A DNA stretch of 64,000 nt from Candidatus Aminicenantes bacterium (GCA_037444845.1 JBBILQ010000004.1:12745-76744); one strand, 5' to 3'. Counted from the first letter of the stretch, positions 5,199-21,165 are shown. A program made the numbers and translations. The notes: a model not told the origin generated them from the letters alone.

Positions 5199-5349
5199 TG
5201 TCAACGCCTCGAGCTCGACCCAGTCTTTGGAAAGCACTGTTGAAGCCCGGGAGGCTGCCGCCGTGGCCAGAAAGACAGCGTCTTTTTAGCATGATAAAAA
5301 TATCGTAAACCGGACTTGAATTCATGGCCATATTAAGATTATTGGCAGG

Positions 5350-6381: not shown

Positions 6382-6385
6382 CTGA

Positions 6386-7445: not shown

Positions 7446-7655
7446 TTAAGCCGGGGGCGGCTGGCCTTCCAGGACAATTTTCGTCACCAATCTTCTTGTA
7501 TAAAGAAGAAATTGCCCCCCTTCTTCTATCAACTCCACTTCAAAATTGTCCTTCTTGTAGTTCTCCATCACCTCTTGAGCCTTCTCCCTGGACTCGTAGA
7601 CAACGCCATCCCACATGAATTTTTTCCCGTTTATGATCCTCGAAGAATCCGGCAT
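7446..7655 (-). CDS. Small hypothetical protein (69 aa) at the 3' end of the hdr operon
   Basis: ORF on the same strand and tightly spaced after mvhD. No recognisable motifs or cysteines. Confidence 0.3.
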   Translation of the reverse strand: MPDSSRIINGKKFMWDGVVYESREKAQEVMENYKKDNFEVELIEEGGQFLLYTRRLVTKIVLEGQPPPA

Positions 7656-7670
7656 CTTAAACCCTCTGTC

Positions 7671-8087
7671 TTAGGTTTTATACGGGCTCGGCCCTAACTT
7701 TTTAACCTTCTCGGTAAACTCCCTCACCACCTGGGCGAACCTCGGCCCCTCAGACGCCGAAACCCATTCCAACTTAAACCTGTCCGCTTCCAGGCCAAAA
7801 TCTTCCAGCATCAAAACGATTGCCTCGGCTCTCTTCTCCGCCTTGAGGTTTCCCTCCTTGTAGTGGCAGTCGCCGGGATGGCAACCGCACATCAGCACCC
7901 CATCCGCTCCCTTGGTCAGGGCATCAATCACTAAATTGGGATGGACCATCCCTGAGCACATCACTCTGATGATCCTTATATTGGGAGGATACTGCAACCT
8001 TGACACCCCGGCCAGGTCCGCTCCCGCATAGGAACACCAGTTGCAGCAAAAACTCACGATTAAGGGCTCAAACGCCTCACTCATCAT
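7671..8087 (-). CDS. mvhD: MvhD-like subunit (methyl-viologen-reducing hydrogenase delta / FlxD-like)
   Basis: FCCNWCSYAGADLAG...RVMCSGMV...CGCHPGDCHYKEGN, the MvhD signature. Confidence 0.9.
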   Translation of the reverse strand: MMSEAFEPLIVSFCCNWCSYAGADLAGVSRLQYPPNIRIIRVMCSGMVHPNLVIDALTKGADGVLMCGCHPGDCHYKEGNLKAEKRAEAIVLMLEDFGLEADRFKLEWVSASEGPRFAQVVREFTEKVKKLGPSPYKT

Positions 8088-11000
8088 CCTACTCCTAAGG
8101 CCGCGTTGGCCTGCGCGGCTAACTGTTCAAGGGTAAAGCCTTTGACGAATATTCCCTTCTTGGGACAGGTGGCCATGCAGCACCCGCAGCCCTTGCAGGC
8201 CGTCTCATCCACCTCGACCGTCTTTTTCACCGAACCATTTCTCATGTATTCGATTAATGTAATTGCCTGATAAGGACATGGTTCAATGCAGTAGGCGCAG
8301 CCGTCGCAGTTCTCATCCACCACCTGAGAAATGTTCGCCTCCAGCTCCACACTGTCCTTGGAGAGCACCGTCGATGCCCGGGAGGCTGTCGCCTGGGCCT
8401 GGATGATGCTCTCGTCGATGGCTTTGGCCGAATGAGCCAGGCCGCATAAAAAGACTCCCTCGGTGGCAAAATCAACAGGCCGCAACTTCATGTGGGCTTC
8501 CAGGAAAAACTTCTCCTTGGTTAAGGGGACTTTCAAGAATTTGGCAATCTCCTCGTTCCCCTGATCTGCCACAATTCCGGCCGACAACACGACCAAGTCC
8601 GCGGTAAGCTCCAGGGGCATCTTTAACGTCTGGTCAAAAACCACGACACTCAACCCATTCCCGTTCTGGGACACCTCCGGCTTTCTATCCTCTTCATACC
8701 TGGCGAACATGACTCCCTGCCGCCTGGCTTCGGAATAGTAGCTTTCCCTGAACCCGTACGTCCTGATGTCCCGGAACAAAACATACACATTCGTCTTAGA
8801 AGAAAGCTCTTTTATTTTTAGAGCGTTCTTGACGGCTTCGGTGCAGCAAATCCGGGAGCAGTAGGGCCTTTCCACATCCCGGGAGCCAACGCATTGAATC
8901 ATCACGATGTTCCTGGGAATTCCGTTATTCCTGCCCTTTGACCAAATTCCACCCTCGCCGAGGCGCTGCTCCAGCTCAAGCTGAGTTATGACTCTGTCAT
9001 TCTGTCCGTACAGATACTCCTTGGGTTTATATTGCTGAGCTCCGGTGGCAACGATCACGACGCCGTGTTCAAATTCTTCTGATTTTCCGTTCGTGCTAAT
9101 CGTTGTCTTGAAATTCCCGATTGTCCCTTCAATCTTTTCGATCTTAGCATCTGTGTAAAGAAAGATTTTTCCCGAGTCTTCGACCTGTTCGATAAGGCTT
9201 TTTAACCTGCTCTGCGGGTTTTCTCCGCTTATTAAGTAGTTGATATGCCGGAGATTTCCGCCCAGCTCCTTCTCCTTCTCAACCAGATGGACATAAAACC
9301 CCTGGTTAGCCAGTTCGATTGCCGAAGTCATGCCCGAAAGCCCGCCGCCGATGACGAGGGCAGCTTTAACGATGGGCACGGCTCTTTTCTGGAGAGGGCT
9401 CAATAATCGCGCCTTGGCCACAGCCATTCTGACCAAGTCCCTGGATTTCTCCGTTGCCTTTTCCGGCTCCGCCATATGCACCCAGGAGCACTGGTCCCTG
9501 ATATTGGCCATCTCGAAAAGATAGGGGTTCAGCCCAGCTTCCCTGGCCGTATTCCTGAACAGAGGCTCGTGAGTTCGCGGCGTGCAGGAGGCCACGACGA
9601 CGCGGTTGAGGCTGTGCTCCTTGATTTTTTCCTTTATTCTCTCTTGAGTGTCGTTCGAACAGGTGTAGAGGTTATTTTCTGCGTAAACGACACCGGGAAG
9701 CGTCCTGGCATACTCGACTACATCCAGGACACGGACCACCCCGGCGATATTTGTCCCGCAGTGACAGACGAAGACTCCGATTCGCGGCGCCTGCCCGCTG
9801 ACATCAGTCTCCGGGGGGTATTCCTTGGGAATAATAAGGCTTCCTTTAACGTCTCTTAAGAGCGACAGGACTTTGGACGAGGCGCCCGAGGCCTGCATGA
9901 CCGTCTCCGGTATATCCTTTGGCTCAGTAAAAGGACCGGCGACATACACTCCTTCGCGTTTTGATTCAACCGGAGCAAAAGGAGACGTCTTGCAGAAATG
10001 GAATTCATTGAGCTCGACCCCGAATATTTCAGAAATTTCTTTGGCCGATTTTGGGGGGAGCATGCCGACGGATAAAACAACAAGGTCATACTCACGCGAA
10101 GCCTTCCTGTCGTCCTCCGTTAGATAGTCGACGATCAGGTTTTTTGTTTGAGGGACCTCTTTAATGGTGGGCGGACGACACCTTACATAATTTACTCCAT
10201 GCTCCTTAGCCCTTTGATAATACTCATCAAACCCCTTGCTGAAGGCGCGCATGTCCATGATGTAGACATCACAGTCCAGATCTCCGCTGATATGCTCCTT
10301 GGCAATGATGGCTTCCTTGGTCGCGTACATGCAGCAGACAGAGGAGCAATAATCCCGCTCCGAATCACGCGAGCCCACGCACTGGATAAAGGCTATCCTT
10401 CTGGGTTCGGTCTTGTCATAAGGCCTTAAGACTTTTCCAGAATAGGGGCCCGAAGCAGAGAGGATTCTTTCAAACTCGAGCGAGGTGACGACATTAGGGG
10501 AAGCCCCGTATCCCAAACCCTCTTTGATCTTGGCGTCGAACAGGTCGTATCCCGGCGACAGGATGACCGCGCCGACATCCAATTCCATTTTCTTCTCGGT
10601 CTGGTCATAGTCAATCGCCCCGGCTTCGCAAAACTCCTTGCAGACCCCGCATTCATCCTTGAGCACATGGACACAGTATCGTTCGTCGATCGCTGCTTTA
10701 TGAGGAACGGCCTGGGGATAGGCAATGTAGGCCGCAGCCCGATCGAGCAATCCCTTGTCAAATTCATTCAAGATGGGGATTTCTTTATTCTTGCTGATTT
10801 TCTCAAGCCTAATCCTTTCGGTCGGACAAATAAAGGCACAGGCTCCGCAGGTCTGGCAGACATCGGAATTGGCATCAAACGGCGGGCCGACCTTCCGCTG
10901 AGGTCCGCGATGGACAAACCCGATGGCCGCGACACCCATTCGTTCGCAGCACATTCTTGTGCACAAGCCGCAAAGGAAACAATCATCGTTCCTCTTTGTA

Positions 11001-11347
11001 AAGCGTGTTTCTCTAACCCCATGTTCTTCGGCAACACTCTGGATGACTTTTGAATCAGGGCATCTCGCCAGGAGCAGTTCGATCATGATCTTCCGCGATT
11101 TTTTCACCCTTTCGGAATCCGTCTTCACCTCCAAACGATGGCTCGCCGGATAGGTGCATGAAGTCTGAATCGTCGTCCTCCCCCTTTGAATAACCTCGAC
11201 CAGGCATAATCTGCAAGCTCCGTAAGGAGTTAGGGCTTTATGATAACAGAGAGTCGGGACCTTTATGCCCACACTCTGAAGACATTCTAAGACTGTCTTC
11301 CCTTCATCGAATTCGTACTGTCTGCCGTTTATCGTCAGCTCAATCAC
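8084..11347 (-). CDS. hdrA: HdrA-like FAD/FeS oxidoreductase with an N-terminal NuoG-like 2Fe-2S/4Fe-4S domain and tandem HdrA modules (1087 aa)
   Basis: N-terminus MIELTINGRQYEF...CYHKALTPYGACRLCLVEV (2Fe-2S ferredoxin domain); FAD-binding GGGLSGMTSAIELA; HdrA Cys-rich CHCGTNIAG and CSWVH motifs; C-terminal CxxCxxCxxxCP ferredoxin. Confidence 0.85.
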   Translation of the reverse strand: MIELTINGRQYEFDEGKTVLECLQSVGIKVPTLCYHKALTPYGACRLCLVEVIQRGRTTIQTSCTYPASHRLEVKTDSERVKKSRKIMIELLLARCPDSKVIQSVAEEHGVRETRFTKRNDDCFLCGLCTRMCCERMGVAAIGFVHRGPQRKVGPPFDANSDVCQTCGACAFICPTERIRLEKISKNKEIPILNEFDKGLLDRAAAYIAYPQAVPHKAAIDERYCVHVLKDECGVCKEFCEAGAIDYDQTEKKMELDVGAVILSPGYDLFDAKIKEGLGYGASPNVVTSLEFERILSASGPYSGKVLRPYDKTEPRRIAFIQCVGSRDSERDYCSSVCCMYATKEAIIAKEHISGDLDCDVYIMDMRAFSKGFDEYYQRAKEHGVNYVRCRPPTIKEVPQTKNLIVDYLTEDDRKASREYDLVVLSVGMLPPKSAKEISEIFGVELNEFHFCKTSPFAPVESKREGVYVAGPFTEPKDIPETVMQASGASSKVLSLLRDVKGSLIIPKEYPPETDVSGQAPRIGVFVCHCGTNIAGVVRVLDVVEYARTLPGVVYAENNLYTCSNDTQERIKEKIKEHSLNRVVVASCTPRTHEPLFRNTAREAGLNPYLFEMANIRDQCSWVHMAEPEKATEKSRDLVRMAVAKARLLSPLQKRAVPIVKAALVIGGGLSGMTSAIELANQGFYVHLVEKEKELGGNLRHINYLISGENPQSRLKSLIEQVEDSGKIFLYTDAKIEKIEGTIGNFKTTISTNGKSEEFEHGVVIVATGAQQYKPKEYLYGQNDRVITQLELEQRLGEGGIWSKGRNNGIPRNIVMIQCVGSRDVERPYCSRICCTEAVKNALKIKELSSKTNVYVLFRDIRTYGFRESYYSEARRQGVMFARYEEDRKPEVSQNGNGLSVVVFDQTLKMPLELTADLVVLSAGIVADQGNEEIAKFLKVPLTKEKFFLEAHMKLRPVDFATEGVFLCGLAHSAKAIDESIIQAQATASRASTVLSKDSVELEANISQVVDENCDGCAYCIEPCPYQAITLIEYMRNGSVKKTVEVDETACKGCGCCMATCPKKGIFVKGFTLEQLAAQANAALGVG

Positions 11348-11375
11348 GCCGACCTCCGTTCAAAGGAAACTGTTT

Positions 11376-14300
11376 TCATTCTTTAGCCTCGAGATCACAC
11401 CTCAGACATCGCTTGGCTTCAAGGACGGCATCGGCCTCGCTGAATCCCAGTTCAACCTCTGAAAAATCTTTAAGTCTCTGCTCAACCGGCCGGGATTGGA
11501 CTTCAGGCCTTTTCAGGCTTTTCGTCTCTTGCTCCGTGAGCTCAACGGCCTCCACATGCACGGCCGGACGGGTGACCTCATATCTTCTCTCCAGCTTTTC
11601 ACCCCTGATATACGTATCTATCATCTGAGCAGCCGTTTTGCCATGGGCCATGGCCTCGGTCACTGTATTCGGGCCGGTCACCACATCACCCCCTGCGAAT
11701 ATCCCCTTGATATTTGTAGAAAGAGTTTCGGGATCGACCTCGATGGTATTCCATTTAGAAATGTTCAATCCATTTCCGCTGAACAAAGAGACATCCGGCT
11801 CCTGACTGATGGCCAAAATCAACGTATCCACGTCGAGGCGAAATTCTGAGCCCTCTACCGGGACAGGCCGTCTTCTCCCGCTCTGGTCTATTTCTCCCAG
11901 TTCCATCCTGATACATTCAATAGCTTTGAGCTGGCCATTGCCTGAAATGACTTTGACCGGAGCAGCCAGGAATTGGATCTCCACGCCCTCGGCCATGGCT
12001 CCTTCAACTTCGCTCTCGATAGCGGGCATCTCCGCTCTCGTCCTTCTGTATAAAATTTTCGTATTCCTGCCTAAGCGTCTGGCTACCCGGGCAGCATCGA
12101 TGGCAGAATTTCCCCCCCCGACAACGATGACCTTGTCACCAATCTTGACTTGGCGTCCAAGGTTAACATCCCTCAGGAATTCGATGGCATCGATAACACC
12201 CCCCGCTTCTTCGCCGGGGATTTTCATCTTCAAGCCTCTATGAGCTCCGATGGCGATGAAAACAGCGTTATAGTCTTCCTTCAGTTTAGCTAAGGAAATG
12301 TCTTTCCCCACAGTCGTGTTCGTCTTTATTTCCACCCCTAATTTTTTTATCCTGTCTATTTCATACTTCAAGACATCCTTGGGGAGCCTGAAATCCGGAA
12401 TACCCAGGGCCAGCATGCCGCCGGGGAGTTCCTGGCTTTCAAATATGGTCACTTTGTACCCTTCAAGAGCAAGATAATAAGCGCACGTCAGCCCTCCCGG
12501 ACCGGAGCCAACGATGGCCACCTTTTCTTTTTTTTGGCTCTTTGGTTTTTCTCCCGTGTCGAGGTCATGCTTCATCTCATAATCGGCCAGGAAACGCTTC
12601 AGCAGCCTGATGGAGATGGGATCATCCCATTCCCCGGCGACGCACTTCTTTTCACAGGGCGTATTACAGACCCTCCCGCAGACAAGAGGGAGCGGGTTTT
12701 CTTTTCTCACCACTTTAATGGCATCTTCAAGTTTTCCCCGGGCAATGAGCCCTATATAACTGGGGACATCCTGGGAAAGCGGGCAGATATGCTGACAGGC
12801 AGATGAAATAATCCCCTTGCACACCAACGCAGAGCATCTCTTGTATTTAATGTGCTCGATATACTCGTCCTCGAAATATCTCAACGTGCTCAGGACAGGG
12901 TTCGGGAGCGTCTGTCCCAGCCCGCACATCGAGGCGTCTTTGATCGCATCGCTGAGCTCTTCTAAAATCTGGATGTCCTTTTCTTTGCCTTCCCCTCTGC
13001 AGATCCTCCTGAGTATTTCCAGGAGCTCCGTTGACCCGTCGCGGCAGGAAGCGCATTTTCCGCAGGACTCATCGTTGGTGAATTCGATAAAATACTTGGC
13101 CACATCCACGACACAGGTGTCCTCGTCCATCACAATCAACCCGCCGGATCCCATAATCGACCCTGCTTCGGTCAATTTTTCATAATCCACCGGCAGGTTT
13201 ATCAAACTCGCGGGAATGCACCCCCCTGAAGGCCCTCCCGTCTGGATGGCCTTGAACTTTTTCCCCTTCGGGATTCCGCCTCCGATATCATAGATGATTT
13301 CTTTTAGAGTAATTCCCATGGGGACTTCGACCAGGCCCGTGTTGTTGATCTTGCCGACAAGAGAAAATACCTTTGTCCCTTTGCTCAACGGAGTGCCAAT
13401 ACTGCTAAACCAATCCGATCCTCGGTCAATGATAACCGGAATCGTCGCCCAGGTTTCGACATTATTGATGACCGTGGGCTTTCCCCATAGCCCTGACTCA
13501 ACAGGAAACGGCGGCCTCTGTCTTGGCTCTGGCGGACGCCCCTCTATGGAACCGATGAGCGAGGTTTCTTCGCCGCAAACGAATGCCCCTGCTCCCTGTT
13601 TGATGGAAATATCAAAGCTGAAATCCGTATCGAATATTCTTTCACCAAGAAGCCCGTAATCTCTTGCCTGGGCCAGCGCAATCTCCAGCCTCTTCATGGC
13701 CAGCGGGTACTCCGCTCTGATGTAGACATACCCTTTTCTGGCGCCTATGGCTCTGGCTCCGATCAGCATTCCTTCGATGACCGAATGAGGGTCAGCCTCG
13801 ACAATGCTCCTGTCCATGTAAGCGCCGGGGTCGCCTTCATCTCCATTGCAGATGATGTATTTTGTGTCTCCCGGCTGGTTCCAGCACAGTTCCCACTTCA
13901 GGCCTGTTGGGAATCCAGCCCCTCCCCGGCCTCGCAGGCCGGATTTTTTCACTTCTTCAATAATATCTTCCGTCGACATTTCTGTGAGCGCCTTGGCCAG
14001 GGCTTTATACCCGTCTCTGGCGATGTATTCGTCGATGACTTCAGGGTCTATTAACCCCCTGTTTCTAAGAGAGATGAGCGTCTGGCGGGAGAAGAATCCA
14101 ATATCCATCATCTTGGGAATGGGAACCCTCTCGGCAGGGGGGGTAAACAGAAGCCGCTTGACAGGCCTCCCTTTCAAGAAATGCTCCTCAACCAGATGCG
14201 GAATGATATCTTTAGTTAGACTATGATAGAAAATGCCATCGGGCATGACAGTCATGACAGGGCCTACAGCGCAAAATCCGTTACATCCTGTCATGACAAC

Positions 14301-14441
14301 GATGACTTCTTTATCCAGTCCTTGCTTCTTTAATTCTTCGTCCAGCGCTTCCTTGATCTTAAAAGCCTTATTGGAAACACAAGCGGTCCCCGCGCAGAGC
14401 ATTAAATGGAGCCTGTATCTGTCCAAGTTTTGCCCGTTCAT
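11376..14441 (-). CDS. NuoE-like/NuoF-like/GltD(NfnB)-like fusion: NAD(P)H-oxidising flavoprotein (FlxA-like input module)
   Basis: N-terminal thioredoxin-like 2Fe-2S domain; NuoF motifs GLRGRGGAGFPTGLKWE and SCGKCxxCR; C-terminal GltD-type VAIVGSGPGGLTCAYYLALEGY...GGGNSAIDAAR. Confidence 0.85.
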   Translation of the reverse strand: MNGQNLDRYRLHLMLCAGTACVSNKAFKIKEALDEELKKQGLDKEVIVVMTGCNGFCAVGPVMTVMPDGIFYHSLTKDIIPHLVEEHFLKGRPVKRLLFTPPAERVPIPKMMDIGFFSRQTLISLRNRGLIDPEVIDEYIARDGYKALAKALTEMSTEDIIEEVKKSGLRGRGGAGFPTGLKWELCWNQPGDTKYIICNGDEGDPGAYMDRSIVEADPHSVIEGMLIGARAIGARKGYVYIRAEYPLAMKRLEIALAQARDYGLLGERIFDTDFSFDISIKQGAGAFVCGEETSLIGSIEGRPPEPRQRPPFPVESGLWGKPTVINNVETWATIPVIIDRGSDWFSSIGTPLSKGTKVFSLVGKINNTGLVEVPMGITLKEIIYDIGGGIPKGKKFKAIQTGGPSGGCIPASLINLPVDYEKLTEAGSIMGSGGLIVMDEDTCVVDVAKYFIEFTNDESCGKCASCRDGSTELLEILRRICRGEGKEKDIQILEELSDAIKDASMCGLGQTLPNPVLSTLRYFEDEYIEHIKYKRCSALVCKGIISSACQHICPLSQDVPSYIGLIARGKLEDAIKVVRKENPLPLVCGRVCNTPCEKKCVAGEWDDPISIRLLKRFLADYEMKHDLDTGEKPKSQKKEKVAIVGSGPGGLTCAYYLALEGYKVTIFESQELPGGMLALGIPDFRLPKDVLKYEIDRIKKLGVEIKTNTTVGKDISLAKLKEDYNAVFIAIGAHRGLKMKIPGEEAGGVIDAIEFLRDVNLGRQVKIGDKVIVVGGGNSAIDAARVARRLGRNTKILYRRTRAEMPAIESEVEGAMAEGVEIQFLAAPVKVISGNGQLKAIECIRMELGEIDQSGRRRPVPVEGSEFRLDVDTLILAISQEPDVSLFSGNGLNISKWNTIEVDPETLSTNIKGIFAGGDVVTGPNTVTEAMAHGKTAAQMIDTYIRGEKLERRYEVTRPAVHVEAVELTEQETKSLKRPEVQSRPVEQRLKDFSEVELGFSEADAVLEAKRCLRCDLEAKE

Positions 14442-14481
14442 CGTCTATTTGACCTCTATTCGTGAAATGACGGAAAGCACG

Positions 14482-14865
14482 TCAAGAGACCCTCTCGCTT
14501 CCCACAGCCAGGGCATAGTCACTGACGATCTTCCCTCCGTTGACGTGCTCTGCCAATATTCTCCGTATCTTTTCCGGAGTCAAATCGACATACTTGACAG
14601 GCGCGTCGCCCTTCAGTTCCACCGTGGCCATGGGCTCTTTGCTGCACAACCCCGCGCACCCTGAGCTGGTGAGAATAACATCCTTGATGTTTTGCTTCTC
14701 AAACTCATCCATTAACGTGCTCATGATCACCCTCGCTCCAGCGGCTATCCCGCAAGTTCCCATGTGAACGGTTATTTTGGCTCTTCCCGCTCCTTCCCTC
14801 AAAAGAGTCGTCTTTTTCACTCTCTCGCTGATGGCATCCAAATCTTTAATCGTTAGTTTCGGCAT
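14482..14865 (-). CDS. NuoE/HoxE-like thioredoxin-fold 2Fe-2S ferredoxin
   Basis: Cys pattern HMGTCGIAAGA...SSGCAGLCSKEP, typical of NuoE-family proteins. Confidence 0.8.
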   Translation of the reverse strand: MPKLTIKDLDAISERVKKTTLLREGAGRAKITVHMGTCGIAAGARVIMSTLMDEFEKQNIKDVILTSSGCAGLCSKEPMATVELKGDAPVKYVDLTPEKIRRILAEHVNGGKIVSDYALAVGSERVS

Positions 14866-14926
14866 TATCTCTCTCTCCGTTAAAAGCGTTCAAGCATCAG
14901 ACCTTGAACGGCTTTTGCCCGAGCCA

Positions 14927-15817
14927 TTACTGGGCGTGCGCATATGTTCCCAGCAACTCGGGCACTTTTGTCTTGGACATAAGACCATGAATATCTTCTC
15001 CCACCTTCAGGACTGGAGCCAGGCCGCAGCATCCGATACAACGCACGGTCTCAAGCGTAAAAAGCATGTCCTTTGTCGTCTCCCCGTTTCTTATCCCCAG
15101 CTCACTTTCAAGGGCCCCGACAACTTTGCCGGCGCCCTTGACATGACAGGCCGTCCCGAGGCAGACCGTGATGATATGCTTGCCCCTCGGCTCCAGGCTG
15201 AAAGCGTTATAAAAGGTGGCGATTCTACAGACCACACTCAAAGGCATGTTGAGCTGATCAGCCACGTATCTCAACACGGGCTCGGGCAGATAGTTATACG
15301 TATCATTGGCTTTCTGCAGGATGGCGACCAGCGGCCCTTCTATATCTTTATATTCTTTGATGATTCTGTTCATGATTTCCATATCTTTAACGGAAATATC
15401 AATTTTGTCTTTTTCCGGTGTCACATAAATGATATGGTGAACCGGGCAATTCTCCGTGCAGATACCGCATCCCGTGCACTTCTCCTCGTCCACAAACCTC
15501 GGTCTCTTCCGGATTTTTACTTTAAAATGGCCAGCTGTTCCTTCGATGCTCTCGATGTCGGCAAGGGAAATCACTTCAATGTCCTTGTGTCTGCCCACTT
15601 CAACCAGCCTCGGCGCCATCGTGCACATGGCGCAATCGTTCGTCGGGAAAGTCTTGTCGAGTTGAGCCATGACGCCGCCGATGGATGGTTGGCTATCGAC
15701 CAGATAAACCTTAATGCCTGATTCAGCCAGGTCAAGGGCTGCCTGCATACCGCCAATTCCGCCGCCAACAACCAGGGCGGCACCAATTTTTTTATTTTCC
15801 TCTGCGTTCATTGACAT
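14927..15817 (-). CDS. Fusion of an HdrA N-terminal FAD-binding/ferredoxin segment with a NuoE-like 2Fe-2S domain
   Basis: ALVVGGGIGGMQAALDLAESG...DKTFPTNDCAMCTMAPRLVEV (HdrA N-terminus), CTGCGICTENCP, then NuoE-like CLGTACHVKG...CIGCCGLAP. Confidence 0.7.
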   Translation of the reverse strand: MSMNAEENKKIGAALVVGGGIGGMQAALDLAESGIKVYLVDSQPSIGGVMAQLDKTFPTNDCAMCTMAPRLVEVGRHKDIEVISLADIESIEGTAGHFKVKIRKRPRFVDEEKCTGCGICTENCPVHHIIYVTPEKDKIDISVKDMEIMNRIIKEYKDIEGPLVAILQKANDTYNYLPEPVLRYVADQLNMPLSVVCRIATFYNAFSLEPRGKHIITVCLGTACHVKGAGKVVGALESELGIRNGETTKDMLFTLETVRCIGCCGLAPVLKVGEDIHGLMSKTKVPELLGTYAHAQ

Positions 15818-15898
15818 GGCCTGAGATTCTCTCCTTGTTCACACGCCTTTGAACCCTATTTTTCATTCCGGTTCGTATCGCCTTCATTCCTTCTCCAC

Positions 15899-16750
15899 TC
15901 AGAGAAGGCCTTTTGATTTCAATAGATCACACGGATCAATAATGTGCCTTCTTAGCCATTGATCTACTTCCTCCGAGCCCAAGGCCAATCCTAGTAGCTC
16001 TGTAAAATAAAAGATGGGGAAGTGAACCTCCCGACCTACATTTTTCGAGACCGCCAGCTGTTTCGTGTCCAGATTGGCTTGGCAGAGGGGGCATGCCGTG
16101 GCCACACAATCCGCTCCTGCATCTTCCGCCATTTGGATGAGTTTTCCTGAAAGCTGGGCCACAATATCAGGTCGGGAAAGCATCAGGCTTCCACCACAAC
16201 AGTCTGTTTTATAGGACCAGGGATAAACCTCCACGCCCAAAAGGGATAAAAGCTCATCCATAGCTTGGGGATTTTCGTAGTTTTTCGCATCCGTCACCTT
16301 GGGAGGCCTGGTTATGAGACACCCATAGTAACAAACAGCCTTGAGACCCTTCAAAGGTTTTTTTATTTTCTCTTTGATGCCTTTAAGATTTTCTTTTTCA
16401 AAGAGAAAATCGAGGAGATGTTTAATGGGAACTTTTCCCCGATAGGAAGTCTCTATAACAGGTTTCTTTCCTTCTCGGACGTGTTTTTCTGCAACCTTGA
16501 ACCTTTGAAAGCAAGCGGCGCAAGGAATCACCAGGTCCAAGCCAACATCCTCCGCCGTAACAAGGTTGCGTGTCGCAAGCTCAATGGCTAAGACCTCATC
16601 GGTACAATGGGCAGAACTCGCACCACAGCAGTTCCAGTCTGTAAGTTCATTTAGCTCGATACCCAGAATCTTGCAGACCTCCAGCGTGGATTTTCCATAC
16701 TCAAGTCCAGTGCTACGCAGGGAACAGCCGGGGTAATACGAAACTTTCAC
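15899..16750 (-). CDS. hdrB: HdrB-like subunit with two CCG domains
   Basis: YYPGCSL...NCCGA and YYGCLITRP...CCGG...CPLCQ, the CCG-domain signatures. Confidence 0.9.
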   Translation of the reverse strand: MKVSYYPGCSLRSTGLEYGKSTLEVCKILGIELNELTDWNCCGASSAHCTDEVLAIELATRNLVTAEDVGLDLVIPCAACFQRFKVAEKHVREGKKPVIETSYRGKVPIKHLLDFLFEKENLKGIKEKIKKPLKGLKAVCYYGCLITRPPKVTDAKNYENPQAMDELLSLLGVEVYPWSYKTDCCGGSLMLSRPDIVAQLSGKLIQMAEDAGADCVATACPLCQANLDTKQLAVSKNVGREVHFPIFYFTELLGLALGSEEVDQWLRRHIIDPCDLLKSKGLL

Positions 16751-17334
16751 GTACGTTCTCCTCTGTTTAGCTTTTTGAAAAGCTTTTTGATCTCTTTTCT
16801 TCCTTTGATCCTTTCAGGGATGATTTTCAGCTTTCCATTCTTGAACAACTTCCATCCCACTTTCATGTCTTCCAAAAGAGAACCGTTCTTTATGTTGGAA
16901 ACCAAATCTCCACTTCTCAGGACGTATGAGCCAATCATCCCCAGCTCATACAGTCTTCCCGTTTTTTTAATCGAGGAGAGAACGGAACCGTGAAAAACAG
17001 ATGGCCTCTTTTCTCCCAACTCCAATCCGGATTTGATTGAAGCCATCCTCAGAGCGTCTATAATCTTGGCGACATCAATATCATTAGGACAGCGTGTGGT
17101 GCAGGCTTCACAGGAAACGCACAGCCAGATAGAAGAGCTCTTTAAAACGATTTCTTTTAGTCCCATTCGAATCATATGAATGATCTTGTGCGGCGGTAAA
17201 TCCATAGCAAAAGCAACGGGGCATCCGCTGGAACATGTCTTACACTGATAACAGATTGAAGCGCTTTCCCCGCTGAATTTCTCCACCTCCGCAAGCCAGG
17301 CGTGATTTGGGACAATCGCTGACTCAGACGGCAT
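16747..17334 (-). CDS. hdrC: HdrC-like 4Fe-4S subunit
   Basis: CYQCKTCSSGCPV and CVSCEACTTRCP cluster motifs. Confidence 0.85.
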   Translation of the reverse strand: MPSESAIVPNHAWLAEVEKFSGESASICYQCKTCSSGCPVAFAMDLPPHKIIHMIRMGLKEIVLKSSSIWLCVSCEACTTRCPNDIDVAKIIDALRMASIKSGLELGEKRPSVFHGSVLSSIKKTGRLYELGMIGSYVLRSGDLVSNIKNGSLLEDMKVGWKLFKNGKLKIIPERIKGRKEIKKLFKKLNRGERT

Positions 17335-17647
17335 GATTTATCTCCTTGACACTGTGAGGAAACGGGCCATCGAAATCATATCTCCACCCCCAGGGCTCTG
17401 TCTTTCTGGGGCAGGCCGTTGAACAATCGCCGCAGTAGTAGCACAACCACGGCTCGAGGCTGCTTCGCAGCAGGCCTTTCAAGCCCAGGAGCACATAGCG
17501 CATCGTTCTCCTGGGAAATGAAGCCGAGTCCTTTGCTAAGTTACAGGAAACCGTGCAGCTTCCGCATTGATAACAAGCGTTTACGTCGAAATGGCCGTAC
17601 TTCCGGACTTCTTCCAATAAGTTAGGATCACTTTTAATATTTATCAT
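17324..17647 (-). CDS. Small HdrC-like 4Fe-4S ferredoxin; first gene of the operon
   Basis: CYQCGSCTVSC and CYYCGDCSTACP motifs; overlaps hdrC by about 11 nt. Confidence 0.65.
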   Translation of the reverse strand: MINIKSDPNLLEEVRKYGHFDVNACYQCGSCTVSCNLAKDSASFPRRTMRYVLLGLKGLLRSSLEPWLCYYCGDCSTACPRKTEPWGWRYDFDGPFPHSVKEINHAV

Positions 17648-17982
17648 GCTTGCACCGCTTCACTGAGATAGCCCTATCCTTTCTTTTGGCCACAAACCTC
17701 CCTTTTGGCTTCTCTTAAAATCAATACATGGGTAAAGCTGTTTTGTCTTTCCGCTTTGAATAAGGGCATCGTCTTATAATTATAATAACAAGCAGGCAAT
17801 TAGTCCTGAACTGGGCCTCAGGAACACGGTATAATATAAAACAAAGATTCTGTTGTCAAGAAATTCGCAGAAACTCGCTTGGCTGACCAAAATTCGGGAG
17901 CGGTAGCGCTTTGAAAGCGAGTTGGATATAATAGAATGTTTATTTCTTTGATTCTCGAATTCATAAAATAAGGAGGCCCTGG

Positions 17983-18429
17983 ATGAGCAACGGAACTTTC
18001 GAGCCCAGGCTGGTCGGGTTCCTGTGCAACTGGTGCTCATACACAGGAGCAGACCTTGCCGGCACAGCGAGGATGATCTACGCGCCCAACATCCGCGTCA
18101 TCCGGGTCATGTGCAGCGGCCGTGTCGACCCTCAGTTCGTTCTGAAAGCATTCAAGGAAGGGGCTGACGGAGTCCTGATCTCGGGCTGCCATCCAGGAGA
18201 CTGTCATTACAAGGAAGGCAATTATAAGGCTCTCAAGCGGGCCAAGCTTCTGTCGAAAATGCTTGATCAGTTCGGCATCGAAAAAGAGAGATTCCGGCTG
18301 GAATGGGTCTCCGCAGCCGAGGGAGTAAAATTCCAGCGGGTCTGCAATGAATTCACGGAACAGATCCGGAAACTGGGGCCGCTCGGCCTGGCCAAAAACG
18401 GAGGCAAACATGAGCAACGCGAAGCCTAA
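17983..18429 (+). CDS. mvhD: MvhD (second paralog), first gene of the mvhDGA operon
   Basis: LCNWCSYTGADLAG...ISGCHPGDCHYKEGN; RBS AAGGAGG before the ATG; a TATAAT box at about 17926. Confidence 0.9.
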   Translation: MSNGTFEPRLVGFLCNWCSYTGADLAGTARMIYAPNIRVIRVMCSGRVDPQFVLKAFKEGADGVLISGCHPGDCHYKEGNYKALKRAKLLSKMLDQFGIEKERFRLEWVSAAEGVKFQRVCNEFTEQIRKLGPLGLAKNGGKHEQREA

Positions 18430-19390
18430 GGTTGCCTTTTACTGGTCCTCCTCGTGCGGCGGCTGCGAGGAATCCATCGTTGACCTGGCAGAAGACATCC
18501 TCAAAGTTGTTGCTGCCGTGGACATCGTCTTCTGGCCGGTCGCTCTCGATTTTAAGAAGAAGGATGTCGAGGCCATGCCCGACGGCTCCATCGCCGTGAG
18601 TTTCATCAACGGCGCCGTCAGGCTCTCCGAGCAGGAGGAAATGGTCAAGCTCCTGCGCCGGAAATCCCAGCTCGTCGTCGCCCACGGATCCTGCTCCCAT
18701 CTTGGAGGAATCCCCGGGCTGGGGAACTTCTGGAATAGAGAGACGATCTTCCGGCGCGCCTATCACACGACGCCTTCCACGCAAAACCCTGAGAAAATCG
18801 TCCCGCAGGAAAAGACCATCCTTGAAGGAAAAGAGCTCACCCTGCCCGTGTTTTACGACACGGTTTACGCTCTCAACCAGGTCATCGATGTCGACTATTA
18901 CCTGCCCGGGTGCGCGCCGCCTCGGGATCTCATCCTCAGCGCCGTCAGCGCCATTTTAGAGGGAAAGCTTCCGGCGAAAGGAGCCGTCCTCTCGCCCAAC
19001 ACGTCTCTCTGTGACGACTGCGATAGGAACAAAACCAAGCCCGAAAAATTGACCATCAAGGAGATCAAGCGTCCCTGGGAAATCATGTTAGACCCAGAAA
19101 AATGCTTCCTTGCCCAGGGAGTCATCTGCATGGGACCGGCCACCCGGACAGGCTGCAACGAGCGCTGCATCGAGGCGAACATGCCTTGCCGGGGCTGTTT
19201 CGGCCCCACCGACCAGGTCTACGACCAGGGCGCCAAGTTTCTCTCAGCCCTGGCTTCGATCTTAGACACGAACGACGAAAAGGAAATCGACAGGATCGTC
19301 CAATCCATATCCGACCCTGCAGGAACCTTTTACCGGTTCAGTCTGCCCACGTCCATCCTGCAGCGAAGACGCATGGAGGCCATAAAATGA
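18407..19390 (+). CDS. mvhG: NiFe hydrogenase small subunit, MvhG-type (group 3c)
   Basis: Start chosen at MSNAKPKVAFYWSSSCGGCEES (RBS GGAGG 5 nt upstream); proximal cluster Cys motifs; overlaps mvhD by 23 nt. Confidence 0.85.
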   Translation, partial: NMSNAKPKVAFYWSSSCGGCEESIVDLAEDILKVVAAVDIVFWPVALDFKKKDVEAMPDGSIAVSFINGAVRLSEQEEMVKLLRRKSQLVVAHGSCSHLGGIPGLGNFWNRETIFRRAYHTTPSTQNPEKIVPQEKTILEGKELTLPVFYDTVYALNQVIDVDYYLPGCAPPRDLILSAVSAILEGKLPAKGAVLSPNTSLCDDCDRNKTKPEKLTIKEIKRPWEIMLDPEKCFLAQGVICMGPATRTGCNERCIEANMPCRGCFGPTDQVYDQGAKFLSALASILDTNDEKEIDRIVQSISDPAGTFYRFSLPTSILQRRRMEAIK

Positions 19391-20847: not shown

Positions 20848-20910
20848 AACTCATGAGGATGGTCCTGAAGAAGCGCCCTCTCTTATAGGGATTTCCGTTT
20901 GTTCAATTCT

Positions 20911-21165
20911 AATAGGCGGATGTTTCTCCTGTCAAGGCGAGCACCCATTGCGTGCGTGGCATCCCATGATAACTAACCTGGACTATTCACGAAATGAAAG
21001 GAAAAAATCCCCTCTCCCCATGTGGGAGAGGGTCGGGGTGAGGGGGATCATTCAAAGATTCCCCCTCCCCCCAGGGGAGGGGCCTGCTTTCTGGCATAAT
21101 TTGTGAATAGGTCAGGCTAACTGAGATCACTTCGTTTCGCTCGCGATGACAAAGTCCTAACGGCA
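20911..21165. repeat. Repeat-C palindromic element (REP-like) split by a nested MITE-A insertion
   Basis: Left half gtcaaggcgagcacccattgcgtgcgtggcatcccatgataa, right half ctgagatcacttcgtttcgctcgcgatgac. Together they align to the uninterrupted copy at 38620..38696. Confidence 0.7.
20977..21116 (+). mobile_element. MITE-A copy 2 (140 bp; 14-bp internal deletion relative to the other copies) with CTAA target duplication
   Basis: ctaa at 20973..20976 and 21117..21120; inserted within repeat C. Confidence 0.85.

Follow-up and report, generated by a model that had tools for sequence, protein, structure and literature searches.

A Predicted Hybrid of HdrA-Type and Bfu-Type Electron Bifurcation Modules Encoded by an Aminicenantes Operon with a Split HdrA

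Nine co-directional genes on the minus strand of a Candidatus Aminicenantes genome fragment are predicted to encode a single multisubunit iron-sulfur flavoprotein in which two kinds of bifurcation module are physically fused. As judged from Pfam, NCBIfam, and PDB sequence searches of the operon proteins, the first module is a BamE-like "tandem HdrA" with MvhD and HdrCB, and the second is a HydBC/Bfu-type NADH module comprised of NuoE, an HndB-like protein, NuoF, and the N-terminal part of NuoG (NuoG-N). We found no description in the literature of an HdrA gene split around a Bfu-type machine.

Many anaerobes manage to live near the thermodynamic limit by means of flavin-based electron bifurcation. 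HdrA-type and HydBC/Bfu-type machines were regarded as separate devices until 2026, but class II benzoyl-CoA reductase (BCRII) has now been shown to chain both types. The operon and its relatives show that covalent HdrA-Bfu hybrids are not confined to aromatic degraders and form a conserved family, present in many uncultured bacterial and archaeal lineages, with plug-in donors (Mvh, Flx) and plug-in acceptors (HdrCB, QmoC-like proteins). From the position of the split, within the ferredoxin domain of HdrA, the point at which the two machines are connected can be predicted precisely and in a testable form.

RESULTS AND DISCUSSION

Organization of the operon

The operon occupies positions 7446-17647 of the stretch of DNA analyzed (64,000 nucleotides; the window), and all nine open reading frames reported in the initial annotation are present there on the minus strand. 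The genes, designated g1 to g9, are separated by -11 to 81 nucleotides, and most are preceded by Shine-Dalgarno-like sequences. Upstream of g1 is a sigma-70-like promoter candidate (TTGACA-17-TATTAT; 17831..17859, minus strand), which matched 11 of 12 consensus positions and had the top score in the region, as a consensus match only. No sigma-54 site was found upstream of g1.

The initial annotation described an Hdr/Flx-type bifurcation operon with unusual fusions. Its calls of NuoF, GltD, HdrA, MvhD, HdrB, and HdrC agree with the Pfam, NCBIfam, and PDB searches, none of which contradicted them, and the domain maps agree with an Hdr-type flavin-based bifurcation system. The Flx designation did not hold. 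Pfam and NCBIfam searches detected no FlxA, FlxB, or FlxC homologue (FAD_binding_6, NAD_binding_1, [2Fe-2S]) among the nine operon proteins, and the NAD(P)H module is instead of the HydBC/Bfu type (NuoE-NuoF-NuoG-N).

Division of HdrA copy 1 between g4 and g7

The g4 gene (14927-15817; 296 amino acids) encodes an HdrA N-terminal fragment followed by a NuoE/HydC domain, and g7 (8084-11347; 1,087 amino acids) encodes NuoG-N followed by two HdrA-like units. PDB alignment places the N-terminal fragment of HdrA copy 1 in residues 1 to 130 of g4 (15428..15817, minus strand). This fragment contains the FAD-binding GxGxxG motif ("VVGGGIGG"), a redox-active Cys pair (C62-x2-C65), and Cys motif 1 of the inserted ferredoxin domain; it aligns with residues 145 to 258 of HdrA 5odc_A and 153 to 268 of 8rvu_a. 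The remainder of copy 1, residues 186 to 515 of g7 (9803..10792, minus strand), aligns with residues 258 to 511 of 5odc_A. It contains the second Cys motif of the inserted ferredoxin domain, the TrxR-like core, the CX10CX3CC cluster motif (C323, C334, C338, C339), and Lys344, the equivalent of HdrA K409 (5ODC), which is present in 29 of 29 homologues. The break in copy 1 lies directly behind motif 1 of the inserted ferredoxin domain, with NuoE joined to the upstream HdrA fragment and NuoG-N to the downstream one.

Comparison with an unsplit tandem HdrA (P0122) is consistent with this assignment. The g4 fragment has 72% identity to P0122 residues 14 to 134, and residues 10 to 130 of g4 and 156 to 1084 of g7 are colinear with P0122 at 72% and 60% identity, respectively. 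In Desulfobacterales the homologues of the g4 fragment are stand-alone open reading frames that have a TGA (Sec) codon at the position of C65 and stop right after the CP of motif 1.

HdrA copy 2, residues 516 to 1087 of g7 (8084..9802, minus strand), aligns with residues 3 to 235 and 502 to 643 of 5odc_A. It has an N-terminal cluster domain, a TrxR-like core, and a C-terminal 2x[4Fe-4S] domain, and its core lacks both the Cys pair and the inserted ferredoxin domain. Copy 2 appears to be noncatalytic because K840 is variable, being kept in just 22 of the 29 homologues. The tandem HdrA previously assigned to g7 therefore stands as two units, but the FAD-binding segment missing from the N terminus of the first is located in g4; the HdrA/NuoE fusion recognized in g4 also stands, although the division of one HdrA between the two genes had been overlooked.

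The diagnostic HdrA features, a TrxR-like FAD domain with GxGxxG, CX10-12CX3CC, and the flavin lysine, are all present and are invariant in the 29 homologues. The accessory domains each occur once, spread over split copy 1 and copy 2 rather than on a single, homodimer-forming polypeptide as in HdrABC, and the NCBIfam HdrA models score 582 to 837 bits against cutoffs of 1,100 to 1,400. The split-HdrA architecture recurs at 40 to 59% identity in many bacterial and archaeal lineages. Every Fe-S ligand was kept in the 29 g7 homologues (45 to 91% identity), which also come from many bacterial and archaeal lineages.

The NAD(P)H module

The C-terminal domain of g4 (residues 139 to 296; 14927..15403, minus strand) is a NuoE/HydC (BfuC)-like [2Fe-2S] domain (PF01257, E 1e-46). 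Its closest PDB match is HydC 8a6t_C (E 2e-43), and NfnC and 9mqx_C were matched too. The adjacent g5 (14482-14865, minus strand; 127 amino acids) was previously considered to be a second NuoE but is HndB-like, with a thioredoxin-like ferredoxin fold that matches PF01257 weakly (26.7 bits versus a 24.8-bit cutoff). It has just three Cys, C38, C70, and C74, all conserved, and Gly occupies the fourth ligand position in 37 of 37 homologues.

The product of g6 (11376-14441, minus strand; 1,021 amino acids) joins NuoF/HydB to GltD. Residues 1 to 545 (12807..14441) correspond to a HydB/BfuB-type NuoF with an N-terminal Trx-like [2Fe-2S] domain, FMN and NADH sites, a [4Fe-4S] cluster, and a His/Cys linker; residues 9 to 546 align with residues 4 to 541 of NiFe-HydB 7t2r_B (E 3e-238), including the GRGGAGFPTG and DEGDPGA motifs. 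The alignment ends at residue 546, where the N-terminal dicluster domain of GltD begins. This GltD/NfnB-like domain (residues 546 to 1021; 11376..12806; PF14691, PF07992) has 2x[4Fe-4S], FAD, and an NAD(P)H site and takes the place of the HydB C-terminal ferredoxin-binding domain. It aligns with residues 101 to 526 of NfnA 9n5u_A and with 9bov_A and has 46% identity to the GltD insert of an HdrL-type protein (P0123). We infer NADPH specificity from family membership only. Many relatives lack GltD and retain a NuoF of ca. 620 amino acids.

The N terminus of g7 (residues 1 to 185; 10793..11347, minus strand; PF13510) is a NuoG-N/BfuA-N/BamI-like domain with [2Fe-2S] and 2x[4Fe-4S] clusters. It matches 9mqx_A (E 1e-39) as well as HydA N termini, and 12 of its 12 ligand Cys are invariant across the 29 homologues. 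The BfuB domains, the BfuC [2Fe-2S] cluster, and the BfuA-N clusters are thus all represented. The exception is the C-terminal 2x[4Fe-4S] ferredoxin-binding domain of BfuB, which has been considered part of an "absolutely conserved" BfuBC core (PMC9304861) and is absent from g6.

An interchangeable output subunit

Profile searches identified g1 and g2 as HdrC-like 2x[4Fe-4S] proteins. The first gene (g1; 17324-17647, minus strand; 107 amino acids) was originally designated a small HdrC-like ferredoxin. The 2x[4Fe-4S] domain is indeed there, but the gene is a truncated QmoC-like gene, which went unrecognized, that has retained the N-terminal ferredoxin domain and lost the membrane domain. The top NCBIfam match of g1 is qmoC positions 4 to 80 (E 2e-22), and its residues 1 to 85 have 73% identity to the first 85 residues of a 404-amino-acid QmoC-like protein of a related locus (L001), beyond which the two diverge. 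The gene overlaps g2 by 11 nucleotides. Another Aminicenantes locus (L003) has the same relic with one ligand Cys replaced by Trp, and the relic is missing from L004, L005, and L088.

The HdrC-like g2 (16747-17334, minus strand; 195 amino acids) has two CX2CX2CX3C motifs, and its eight Cys show little or no variation among 25 operon-linked homologues; its TIGR03290 score (69 bits) is under the cutoff. The HdrB-like g3 (15899-16750, minus strand; 283 amino acids) matches PF02754 twice and has two complete CCG motifs (CX31-39CCX35-36CXXC), which predict two noncubane [4Fe-4S] sites. Its C9, C41, C42, C77, and C80 and its C144, C184, C185, C220, and C223 are invariant in 26 to 27 of 27 homologues. 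The best NCBIfam scores of g3, MFR SdhE (174 bits) and HdrB TIGR03288 (158 bits), are both under cutoff. No gene for formation of a disulfide substrate was identified in the window.

In sister Aminicenantes the same position is occupied by either HdrCB or a full QmoC-like membrane subunit, the latter in L001, L002, L086, and L087. QmoC-like proteins of sister loci match NF038018 over its full length with 184 to 198 bits, under the 300-bit cutoff. The output subunit is interchangeable among Aminicenantes, being HdrCB here and a QmoC-like dihaem membrane protein in the sister genomes, and g1 is the scar of such a swap. The exchange in sister genomes was not part of the initial annotation.

MvhD, g9, and potential input modules

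The g8 product (7671-8087, minus strand; 138 amino acids) is the MvhD [2Fe-2S] adaptor (PF02662, E 7e-56), with C15, C18, C44, C69, and C74 conserved. The last gene, g9 (7446-7655, minus strand; 69 amino acids), has no family match, and none of its 407 homologues is annotated. Its place downstream of mvhD is conserved in 13 related loci, which include L001 to L005, L087, L088, and five outside Aminicenantes (L007, L008, L011, L013, L016). The number of homologues and the conserved position indicate that g9 is a real gene. An AF2 model (pLDDT 82) has a beta-beta-alpha-beta-beta topology, and a fold search with this model returned no match at E<0.4.

Divergent from the operon, on the plus strand, is mvhD-mvhG-mvhA (17983..20847), the group 3c/Vhu-type [NiFe] hydrogenase cluster recognized earlier, with the true mvhA start near 19390. 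It is a candidate H2 input module. VhuD, VhuG, and VhuA scores were 138, 220, and 433 bits, all under the cutoffs. The divergent arrangement holds in the window but is not conserved in the closest relatives. Among 27 informative loci, mvhGA directly follow the operon's own mvhD in 10, and flxCBA-like genes follow it in 9, in Desulfobacterales and archaeal relatives (Flx domains were found after mvhD in L022 and L039, for example). Another set of 10/27, including most Aminicenantes loci, has neither Mvh nor Flx genes beside the operon. In one Aminicenantes locus (L086) mvhGA directly precede a QmoC-type operon, and hypAB flank the operon in L001, L005, L087, and L088.

Potential routes of electron transfer

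The initial annotation proposed that NAD(P)H and H2 could both feed the Hdr core. The link to NAD(P)H and H2 is supported, and joint input is one possible wiring, but the gene fusions favor placing the NAD(P)H module on the low-potential output branch of HdrA. In the wiring and direction that we infer, Mvh (from H2) or Flx would deliver electrons via MvhD, HdrA would bifurcate them, and Bfu/GltD would lie on the low-potential branch; the chances of this proposal being right or wrong seem evenly balanced. The copy 1 FAD would take up electrons through MvhD from a mid-potential donor, which would be H2 (by way of MvhAG) in this operon and NAD(P)H (by way of FlxABC) in some relatives. The high-potential electron would pass from the flavin to the CX10CX3CC cluster, to HdrC and HdrB, and on to a disulfide or possibly a quinone, or in relatives through QmoC to menaquinone. 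The low-potential electron would travel by way of the split ferredoxin domain and then the clusters of NuoG-N, arriving at the FMN site of NuoF to reduce NAD+ and, via the GltD domain, NADP+. In sum, H2 would drive the reduction of NAD(P)+, with disulfide or quinone reduction providing the pull, and two bifurcation stages might operate in series. If so, this would explain the role of group 3c hydrogenases and Hdr in nonmethanogens, a question raised in metagenomic surveys (PMC6472368), and would reveal a new path by which subsurface communities move electrons from H2 to NAD(P)H or ferredoxin.

Both fusion tethers terminate in the inserted ferredoxin domain, the low-potential exit of HdrA, so the Bfu module most likely takes low-potential electrons from HdrA. 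In the solved Bfu-HdrA complex this domain has that role, the two modules cooperate, and only the TrxR1 flavin bifurcates (bioRxiv 10.64898/2026.04.10.717634). Furthermore, NAD(P)H already enters through Flx in some variants, where an NADH module serving as a second input would be redundant. The location of GltD within the same inserted ferredoxin domain, both in P0123 and in the product of another gene of the window (33559-36963), also speaks for this wiring. Several considerations argue against it. The tethers, of ca. 15 residues, would indicate proximity, not an electron path, and by analogy BCRII, the only solved analogue, has its Bfu module as an input, not as a low-potential acceptor. 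Except where H2 is scarce, spending electrons at ca. -500 mV to make NAD(P)H would seem a waste. In addition, mvhGA are not adjacent in most Aminicenantes relatives, 10 of the 27 informative loci lack both Mvh and Flx, and g3 scores slightly higher against the quinone-linked MFR SdhE than against HdrB.

It is possible, though we consider it rather unlikely, that the Bfu/GltD module is instead the input, confurcating NADH and NADPH (and reduced ferredoxin in relatives), as in BCRII. Electrons would then move from NuoG-N through the C-terminal ferredoxin domain and MvhD to the HdrA FAD, with HdrCB or QmoC as the high-potential output and the inserted ferredoxin domain delivering to free ferredoxin or another low-potential acceptor, for a Flx-Hdr-like net reaction of 2 NAD(P)H with Fd(ox) and a disulfide or quinone. 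This is the same functional idea as that of the initial annotation, and it has a structural precedent: BamI feeds the BamE C-terminal ferredoxin domain and MvhD, by the path BamI to E1/E2 to BamF to the bifurcating FAD. MvhD is an internal relay there, so its presence needs no hydrogenase, and the 10 loci without adjacent Mvh or Flx genes are consistent with this. However, the halves of the inserted ferredoxin domain, rather than the C-terminal domain, are the parts to which NuoE and NuoG-N are joined, and it is that same inserted domain that carries GltD in HdrL-type proteins. Variants with flxCBA or mvhGA would hold two competing inputs, and the operon encodes no counterpart of the low-potential catalytic module BamBC.

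A somewhat more doubtful proposal is that the low-potential output of HdrA is hard-wired into the mid-potential input of the Bfu-type FMN/Fe-S site, making a two-stage series bifurcator, or "voltage multiplier." Even weak donors, either trace H2 entering by Mvh or NADH entering by Flx, could then reduce ferredoxin or NADP+ when paired with a modest oxidant, be it a disulfide or, through the interchangeable QmoC-like subunit, menaquinone. The order of events would be opposite to that of the benzoyl-CoA reductase cascade, in which confurcation precedes bifurcation, and the family would represent a widespread, unrecognized means by which subsurface anaerobes generate low-potential reductant.

A nonbifurcating linear oxidoreductase, in which electrons from NAD(P)H or H2 run downhill to a disulfide or menaquinone and the second flavins are wires or remnants, is improbable. 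The variable K840 of copy 2, which resembles the TrxR2 domain of BamE in appearing noncatalytic, speaks for such an enzyme, as do the likeness of g3 to SdhE and the resemblance of QmoC-type relatives to Qmo, which is often assumed to carry out simple quinone-linked transfer. Yet the hallmarks of bifurcation are strictly conserved, namely K344, the CxxC pair with its Sec substitution, and three full branches, as are the HydB-type N-terminal [2Fe-2S] domain and linker, and ca. 20 clusters and three or four flavins would be unparsimonious for a downhill reaction. Stand-alone trios of NuoE, NuoF::GltD, and NuoG-N (ca. 240 amino acids) in other genomes (L059, L064, L072, L073, L077 to L079, L085) might suggest two separate enzymes sharing an operon, a Stn/Nfn-Bfu-like transhydrogenase (g4 C terminus, g5, g6, g7 N terminus) and an Hdr (g2, g3, g4 N terminus, g7 C terminus, g8), but this is extremely improbable given that the modules are covalently joined twice, in g4 and g7, in more than 25 loci from many lineages.

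Comparison with known systems

Like the methanogen MvhAGD-HdrABC complex, the operon has the core features of HdrA, MvhD, HdrB with two CCG motifs, and HdrC, with an Mvh-type hydrogenase encoded beside or within it. It differs in that HdrA is tandem, pseudodimeric, and split, with its ferredoxin-reducing domain tethered to an NAD(P)H module, and in that it is found in a nonmethanogen and its NCBIfam Hdr and Vhu scores are all under the equivalog cutoffs. For the FlxABCD-HdrABC system of Desulfovibrio, Ramos et al. reportedly proposed in 2015 that HdrA and the MvhD-like FlxD connect NAD(P)H with a disulfide (DsrC) and a low-potential carrier. The NAD(P)H module of the operon belongs to the unrelated NuoEF/Bfu family.

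In Desulfobacterium autotrophicum and Syntrophobacter fumaroxidans, HdrL likewise combines an HdrA-type sequence with a GltD-like NAD(P)H domain in a large protein that precedes MvhD and is associated with HdrBC. However, HdrL is one polypeptide with GltD only, whereas the operon has a whole Bfu module plus GltD over four genes, and its GltD is joined to NuoF, not to HdrA. The insertion point in the ferredoxin domain is after motif 1 in the operon and just before motif 2 in HdrL. The gene at 33559-36963, with its GltD insert within HdrA, is not followed by mvhD.

Nfn-Bfu (NfnABC) and the Sporomusa-type Nfn (StnABC) are also single enzymes in which a BfuBC-type core is combined with a GltD/NfnB-like NADP(H) domain. 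There GltD is joined to BfuA (NuoG-N) and BfuB retains its ferredoxin-binding clusters; in the operon GltD substitutes for those clusters on BfuB, and BfuA-N is joined to HdrA. The sister loci resemble QmoABC in starting with a QmoC-like protein next to HdrA-like flavoproteins, but they have no QmoA or QmoB orthologues as such and no aprAB context. A QmoC has an HdrC-like N terminus and a six-helix heme b membrane domain, and g1 represents its first 85 residues only.

BamDEFGHI ("Bam-Bfu") of the BCRII of Geobacter metallireducens appears to be the closest characterized analogue. All of its electron-module parts are present in the operon, as compared with the description of Bam, not by sequence alignment with BamE. 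Both have a HydBC/Bfu-type NuoE/NuoF/NuoG-N set (BamG, BamH, BamI) in one complex, a fused HdrA dimer (BamE) with the CxxC pair and the bifurcation lysine at the first flavin only, an MvhD adaptor (BamF), and an HdrBC-like subunit (BamD). No gene for the tungsten AOR-type BamB or for a BamC-like protein was found in the operon or among the open reading frames of the window that were scanned. Gene order is permuted, NuoF bears GltD rather than a ferredoxin-binding domain, and both CCG cluster sites of HdrB are intact, whereas the distal site of BamD is degenerate. Unlike in Bam, HdrA copy 1 is split, with the BamG- and BamI-like domains fused to its fragments, and these fusion points suggest that in the Aminicenantes enzyme the Bfu module lies on the low-potential branch.

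Organization of the operon

Nine co-directional open reading frames (g1 to g9 in transcription order) lie on the minus strand at 7446 to 17647, with exactly the coordinates claimed in the initial annotation. Intergenic distances are -11 to +81 nt, and Shine-Dalgarno-like sequences precede most of the genes. A strong sigma-70-like promoter (TTGACA-17-TATTAT, 17859 to 17831) is located upstream of g1. No sigma-54 -24/-12 match was found upstream of g1, and sigma-54 control of the operon was therefore rejected. Between g1 and mvhD, the divergent promoter region includes an 86-aa ORF (17780 to 18040, minus strand) that matches no family and overlaps the mvhD start; it is probably not a gene.

Gene contents were established with Pfam, NCBIfam, and PDB sequence searches together with cysteine maps. 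The first three genes encode a 107-aa protein with a 2x[4Fe-4S] domain like those of HdrC and QmoC (g1), a 195-aa HdrC-like protein (g2), and a 283-aa HdrB-like protein in which both CCG motifs are complete (g3). Residues 13 to 128 of g4 (296 aa) align to residues 145 to 258 of HdrA (structure 5ODC) and include the start of the FAD Rossmann fold, the cysteine pair C62-x2-C65, and motif 1 (CX2CX2CX3CP) of the inserted ferredoxin domain; residues 139 to 296 are a [2Fe-2S] domain of the NuoE/HydC type. The g5 product (127 aa) is a weak homologue of thioredoxin-like ferredoxins with three cysteines. Residues 9 to 546 of g6 (1021 aa) match HydB, a subunit of bifurcating hydrogenase (7t2r_B, E = 3e-238), with an N-terminal thioredoxin-like [2Fe-2S] domain, an FMN loop, a [4Fe-4S] cluster, and a His/Cys linker. 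The C-terminal part of g6 is a GltD/NfnB-type module (two [4Fe-4S] clusters, FAD, and an NAD(P)H site) in place of the HydB ferredoxin-binding domain. In g7 (1087 aa), residues 1 to 180 resemble NuoG-N, HydA-N, and BamI, with one [2Fe-2S] and two [4Fe-4S] clusters (9mqx_A, E = 1e-39); residues 190 to 500 align to HdrA 258 to ~560, and residues 520 to 751 and 932 to 1077 align to HdrA 3 to 235 and 502 to 643. The g8 product (138 aa) is MvhD.

No family match was found for g9 (69 aa). Its sole Pfam match, DUF7336, was below threshold (E = 0.0085, 16.4 bits versus a cutoff of 25), NCBIfam returned nothing, homologue searches recovered only "hypothetical" proteins, and an AF2 model (pLDDT 82) had no PDB fold match at E < 0.4.

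The initial annotation had described an Hdr/Flx-type electron-bifurcation operon. The domain searches upheld the Hdr-type, bifurcation-related part of this description. Flx membership was rejected because FlxA, FlxB, and FlxC domains are absent from the operon (Pfam and NCBIfam); Flx is an NAD(P)H module different from the one encoded here. That annotation does not mention four key features described below: the division of HdrA, the QmoC relic, the exchangeable output subunit, and the link to Mvh or Flx across the family.

An HdrA unit divided between two proteins

The FAD-binding beginning is missing from the first of the two HdrA units in g7 and is found instead as the N terminus of g4. Residues 10 to 130 of g4 (72% identity) and residues 156 to 1084 of g7 (60%) are colinear with P0122, an unsplit tandem HdrA of ~1025 aa, and in this alignment the split falls directly behind the "CP" of ferredoxin motif 1. 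The NuoG-N domain of g7 has its own two-motif ferredoxin fold (C123-133 and C164-174), which leaves the g7 C225-240 motif unpaired, with the g4 C114-124 motif as its orphan partner. Therefore, the motif arithmetic and the colinearity suggest that the inserted ferredoxin domain must assemble from the g4 and g7 chains. Jointly, the two HdrA units have each HdrA accessory domain exactly once: the CxxC pair and inserted ferredoxin domain belong to copy 1, which is split over g4 and g7, and the N-terminal cluster domain and C-terminal ferredoxin domain (cluster ligands C1014-C1061) belong to copy 2, which lies wholly in g7.

Desulfobacterales encode the HdrA N-fragment as an ORF of its own, which ends just past motif 1 and has TGA (selenocysteine) where g4 has Cys65. 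A separate N-fragment bearing selenocysteine speaks for a redox-active CxxC pair and for a genuine split of the protein itself. The in-frame TGA at the second cysteine of the CxxC pair (NDCAM-U) was seen in seven Desulfobacterales/Desulfatiglandales loci (L015, L021, L022, L028, L030, L034, and L035). In L021, L022, L028, and other Desulfobacterales loci, mvhD appears as two ORFs divided by an in-frame stop. Both the TGA and the mvhD stop presumably encode selenocysteine.

Conservation of predicted cofactor sites

All predicted cluster ligands of g7 are invariant among 29 homologues, as is Lys344, which aligns with Lys409 of the 5ODC HdrA. Its copy-2 counterpart, K840, is variable (22 K, 4 D, 1 N, and 1 S). 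The ten CCG cysteines of HdrB and eight cysteines of HdrC are invariant. The HndB-like g5 (14482 to 14865) retains three of the usual four [2Fe-2S] ligands, and the missing position is Gly in g5 and in all 36 of its homologues (37/37), so the loss of the fourth ligand is ancient and selected.

Exchange of the output subunit

More than 120 clusters of g7 homologues were found at 74 to 100% identity, almost all of ~1087 aa, and the closest that carry organism names are labeled Candidatus Aminicenantes or Acidobacteria. An exact look-up of the window's g7 (P0001) returned no record. In four Aminicenantes loci, L001 (complete genome CP070825.1), L002, L086 (CP070757.1), and L087, a single 404- to 408-aa protein replaces g1 to g3 and is followed by g4 to g8 homologues. 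This protein matched the QmoC model over its full length in the two loci scanned (L001 and L002), at 184 to 198 bits and thus below the cutoff of 300; the L086 and L087 equivalents are 72 to 75% identical to the L001 protein (BLAST). Homologues of g9 were found in L001, L002, and L087; none was found in L086, in which mvhD is truncated. Loci L003, L004, L005, and L088 have HdrC and HdrB, as the window does.

The g1 product and the L001 QmoC-like protein share 73% identity over their first 85 residues and diverge beyond that point, and g1 overlaps g2 by 11 nt. L003 retains a g1-type relic in which one cluster-ligand Cys is replaced by Trp, and L004, L005, and L088 have no relic. This combination of N-terminal identity, overlap, and decaying or lost relics indicates that g1 is the scar of an in-place swap of a QmoC-like membrane subunit for soluble HdrCB. 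The two operon types are interleaved when ranked by g7 identity (HdrCB type, 91, 84, 82, and 74%; QmoC type, 80, 79, 79, and 75%), which points to swapping or recombination more than once. The g2 and g3 products show much the same identity (38 to 43%) to HdrCB linked to the operon in other phyla as to the second hdrCB pair of the window.

That pair, hdrC (37840 to 38505, 221 aa) and hdrB (36960 to 37829, 289 aa), precedes a gene (33559 to 36963) for a 1134-aa single HdrA with a GltD module within its inserted ferredoxin domain, all on the minus strand. No mvhD lies downstream of this second Hdr system (33559 to 38505); the next gene is a convergent hypA.

Variants of the split design

A profile search of 1.8 billion representatives placed the tandem-HdrA body in a large family that includes unsplit forms of ~1000 aa and HdrL-type forms of ~1500 aa. 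One genome per species was scanned by alignment to the NuoG-N::HdrA junction, and domains were then mapped onto all ORFs. The split design has the order [HdrA-N::NuoE][HndB][NuoF(::GltD)][NuoG-N::HdrA...][MvhD]. Among the matches listed, which are a sample rather than a census and do not include Aminicenantes, it was found at 40 to 59% identity in Phycisphaerae, Pirellulales, Cloacimonadota, Gemmatimonadota, Spirochaetia, Bipolaricaulota, Thermoanaerobaculia, Desulfobacterales, Fibrobacterota, Anaerolineae, Zixibacteria, Ignavibacteria, Armatimonadetes, Bryobacterales, Altiarchaeales, and Thermoplasmata. The P0174 cluster includes a Sumerlaeota protein.

Variants have a single, non-tandem split HdrA, a NuoF with the normal ferredoxin-binding tail and no GltD, or five HydABC-operon-type regulatory genes between nuoF and the nuoG-N gene. 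For example, L007 (7179 to 10004) and L008 (7182 to 10004) have DRTGG, CBS+HATPase_c, DRTGG, PHP, and HATPase_c genes between nuoF(::gltD) and nuoG-N::hdrA, and L010, L011, L013, L014, and L016 have a gap of much the same size there. HydABC hydrogenase operons typically contain such a DRTGG/CBS-HATPase/PHP gene set. In L005 and L088 the operon adjoins a HydS-like sensory hydrogenase cluster and a PAS kinase/sigma-54 regulator, and the HydS-like cluster is accompanied by a gene set resembling the five-gene insert.

The g6 homologues of L001 (6131 to 9877), L005 (6234 to 9881), L086 (5006 to 8872), and L087 (5148 to 8999) are longer than g6 (1215 to 1288 versus 1021 aa). In L001 the extra ~230 aa are an E/K-rich low-complexity tail with repeated "IEIPDMKKEE"-like units; the window, L003, L004, and L088 lack the tail.

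Eight loci (L059, L064, L072, L073, L077 to L079, and L085), in Eisenbacteria, Smithella, Zixibacteria, Acidobacteriota, Phycisphaerales, and others, have trios of NuoE (~300 aa), NuoF::GltD (~1060 to 1180 aa), and NuoG-N (~240 aa) with no HdrA. Each is a putative variant of Bfu, the HydBC-type bifurcation family, with GltD instead of the ferredoxin-binding domain. No description of an HdrA-free NuoF::GltD trio was found.

Electron donor modules and genomic neighborhood

Donor modules were counted in 27 loci that encode MvhD and extend at least 2.5 kb downstream of it. The mvhG-mvhA pair directly follows mvhD in 10 of the 27, flxC/B/A-like genes are present in 9 (two loci have both Flx and Mvh), and 10 have neither. 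In L086 (Aminicenantes), the QmoC-type operon is immediately preceded by mvhG-mvhA in the same orientation. The window's own mvhDGA, divergent from the operon, is of the Vhu/Mvh type.

The block at 17983 to 29623 (plus strand) matches positions 11816 to ~21000 of L044, which is labeled Eubacteriales, with protein identities of 85 to 86% for MvhD/G/A, 70% for the histidine kinase (HK), 78% for the sigma-54 regulator, and 64 to 84% for HyhB/G/S. In L044 the block directly follows a single-split-HdrA/Bfu operon. This suggests either a transfer of the mvh-HK-hyh block between operon types or lineages or a mis-binning of L044. Sigma-54-like matches across the window are not above chance (21 observed versus 25 expected); one, with a single mismatch to the -24/-12 site (24824 to 24839, plus strand), lies just upstream of the group 3b hydrogenase (hyhB start, 24858), and a perfect match (29849 to 29864, plus strand) lies within or beside a response-regulator gene. 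From the site at 24824, it is more likely that the neighboring sigma-54 regulator serves the group 3b hydrogenase than the operon.

In L001, L005, L087, and L088, the operon is flanked by hypA and hypB. The window has hypB and hypA at 32554 to 33562, a gene for a large NAD-glutamate dehydrogenase at 39088 to 41964, and one for a DPP-IV peptidase at 46291 to 48615. The operon's neighbors include hypA/hypB and DPP-IV in L001 and hypA/hypB and glutamate dehydrogenase in L088. Because relatives share these neighbors, the hydrogenase and Hdr genes at 17.9 to 38.5 kb look like insertions into a conserved neighborhood, a "redox island." Genes for an AAA_14/DUF4143 ATPase, an N6/N4 DNA methylase, and a BglII-like restriction endonuclease (4029 to 6853, plus strand), with lower GC (46 to 49%), sit between the operon 3' end and a PAS histidine kinase (1116 to 2660). 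A PAS kinase is close to the operon end in L005, L087, and L088, and thus the 4029-to-6853 segment looks like an inserted restriction-modification island.

Proposed route of electrons

The gene products are predicted to form one complex with three or four flavin sites (FMN, GltD-FAD, and two HdrA-FAD), ~20 Fe-S clusters, two pyridine-nucleotide sites, a disulfide-reductase-type site, and the MvhD adaptor. That they are instead two unrelated enzymes is highly improbable and is excluded in practice by covalent fusions conserved at two points.

Each Bfu-side fusion is joined by a tether of ~15 residues to one half of the inserted ferredoxin domain. P0123, an HdrL-type protein, carries a GltD insert (46% identity to the g6 module) just before motif 2 of the same domain. 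From these tethers and the independent GltD insertion, we infer that the NAD(P)H module is on the low-potential branch of HdrA. The Flx-bearing variants also favor this placement because a second NADH input would be redundant in them.

A mid-potential donor would then enter at MvhD, from H2 via MvhAG here and from NAD(P)H via FlxABC in some relatives. The CX10CX3CC cluster would pass high-potential electrons either to HdrC and HdrB or on to QmoC and menaquinone, and low-potential electrons would go through the Bfu site, which could add a second stage. At ~10 Pa, H2 has a calculated E' of ~-300 mV from standard values, versus ~-380 mV for NADP+ in vivo and ~-500 mV for ferredoxin, so their direct reduction would be uphill; the driving force would come from bifurcation against a disulfide or quinone. 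The reverse reaction (quinol or thiol plus NAD(P)H to H2) is thermodynamically implausible.

It is possible, though rather doubtful, that the wiring is instead like that of class II benzoyl-CoA reductase (BCRII), with the Bfu/GltD module as the electron input. This arrangement has a structural precedent, and many loci lack both Mvh and Flx, but the fusion topology speaks against it. A linear, non-bifurcating oxidoreductase passing electrons from NAD(P)H or H2 to a disulfide or quinone is unlikely.

Relationship to known systems

No description of the operon architecture was found in the searchable literature, which leaves out some relevant reviews. The Bfu classification mentions Bam-Bfu as the only class with an HdrA module (PMC9304861), and no "Hdr-Bfu" class was found in that paper. 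HdrL is an HdrA/GltD fusion followed by MvhD (PMC2702500, PMC5947623). The operon does not encode a benzoyl-CoA reductase itself, since BamB/C-like genes are absent from the operon and the window ORFs scanned.

The closest characterized system is BamDEFGHI of BCRII. According to a 2026 cryo-EM study (bioRxiv 10.64898/2026.04.10.717634), electrons enter through BamGH, a confurcating input of the HydBC type, with BamI as a small connector ([2Fe-2S]+2x[4Fe-4S]) and BamF as a relay of the MvhD type. The exits are the HdrBC-like BamD on the high-potential side and the inserted ferredoxin domain on the low-potential side. BamE is a fused, domain-permuted HdrA dimer with a Cys59-Cys62 pair and one bifurcating FAD, whose Lys280 is comparable to g7 Lys344. 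Only the first BamE flavin bifurcates, which is mirrored by the invariant copy-1 K344 and variable copy-2 K840. The operon has every part of the Bam system except BamBC but differs in the permutation and fusions and in the addition of GltD. It generalizes the recent discovery that two bifurcation modules are coupled, and it offers a sharp structural prediction.
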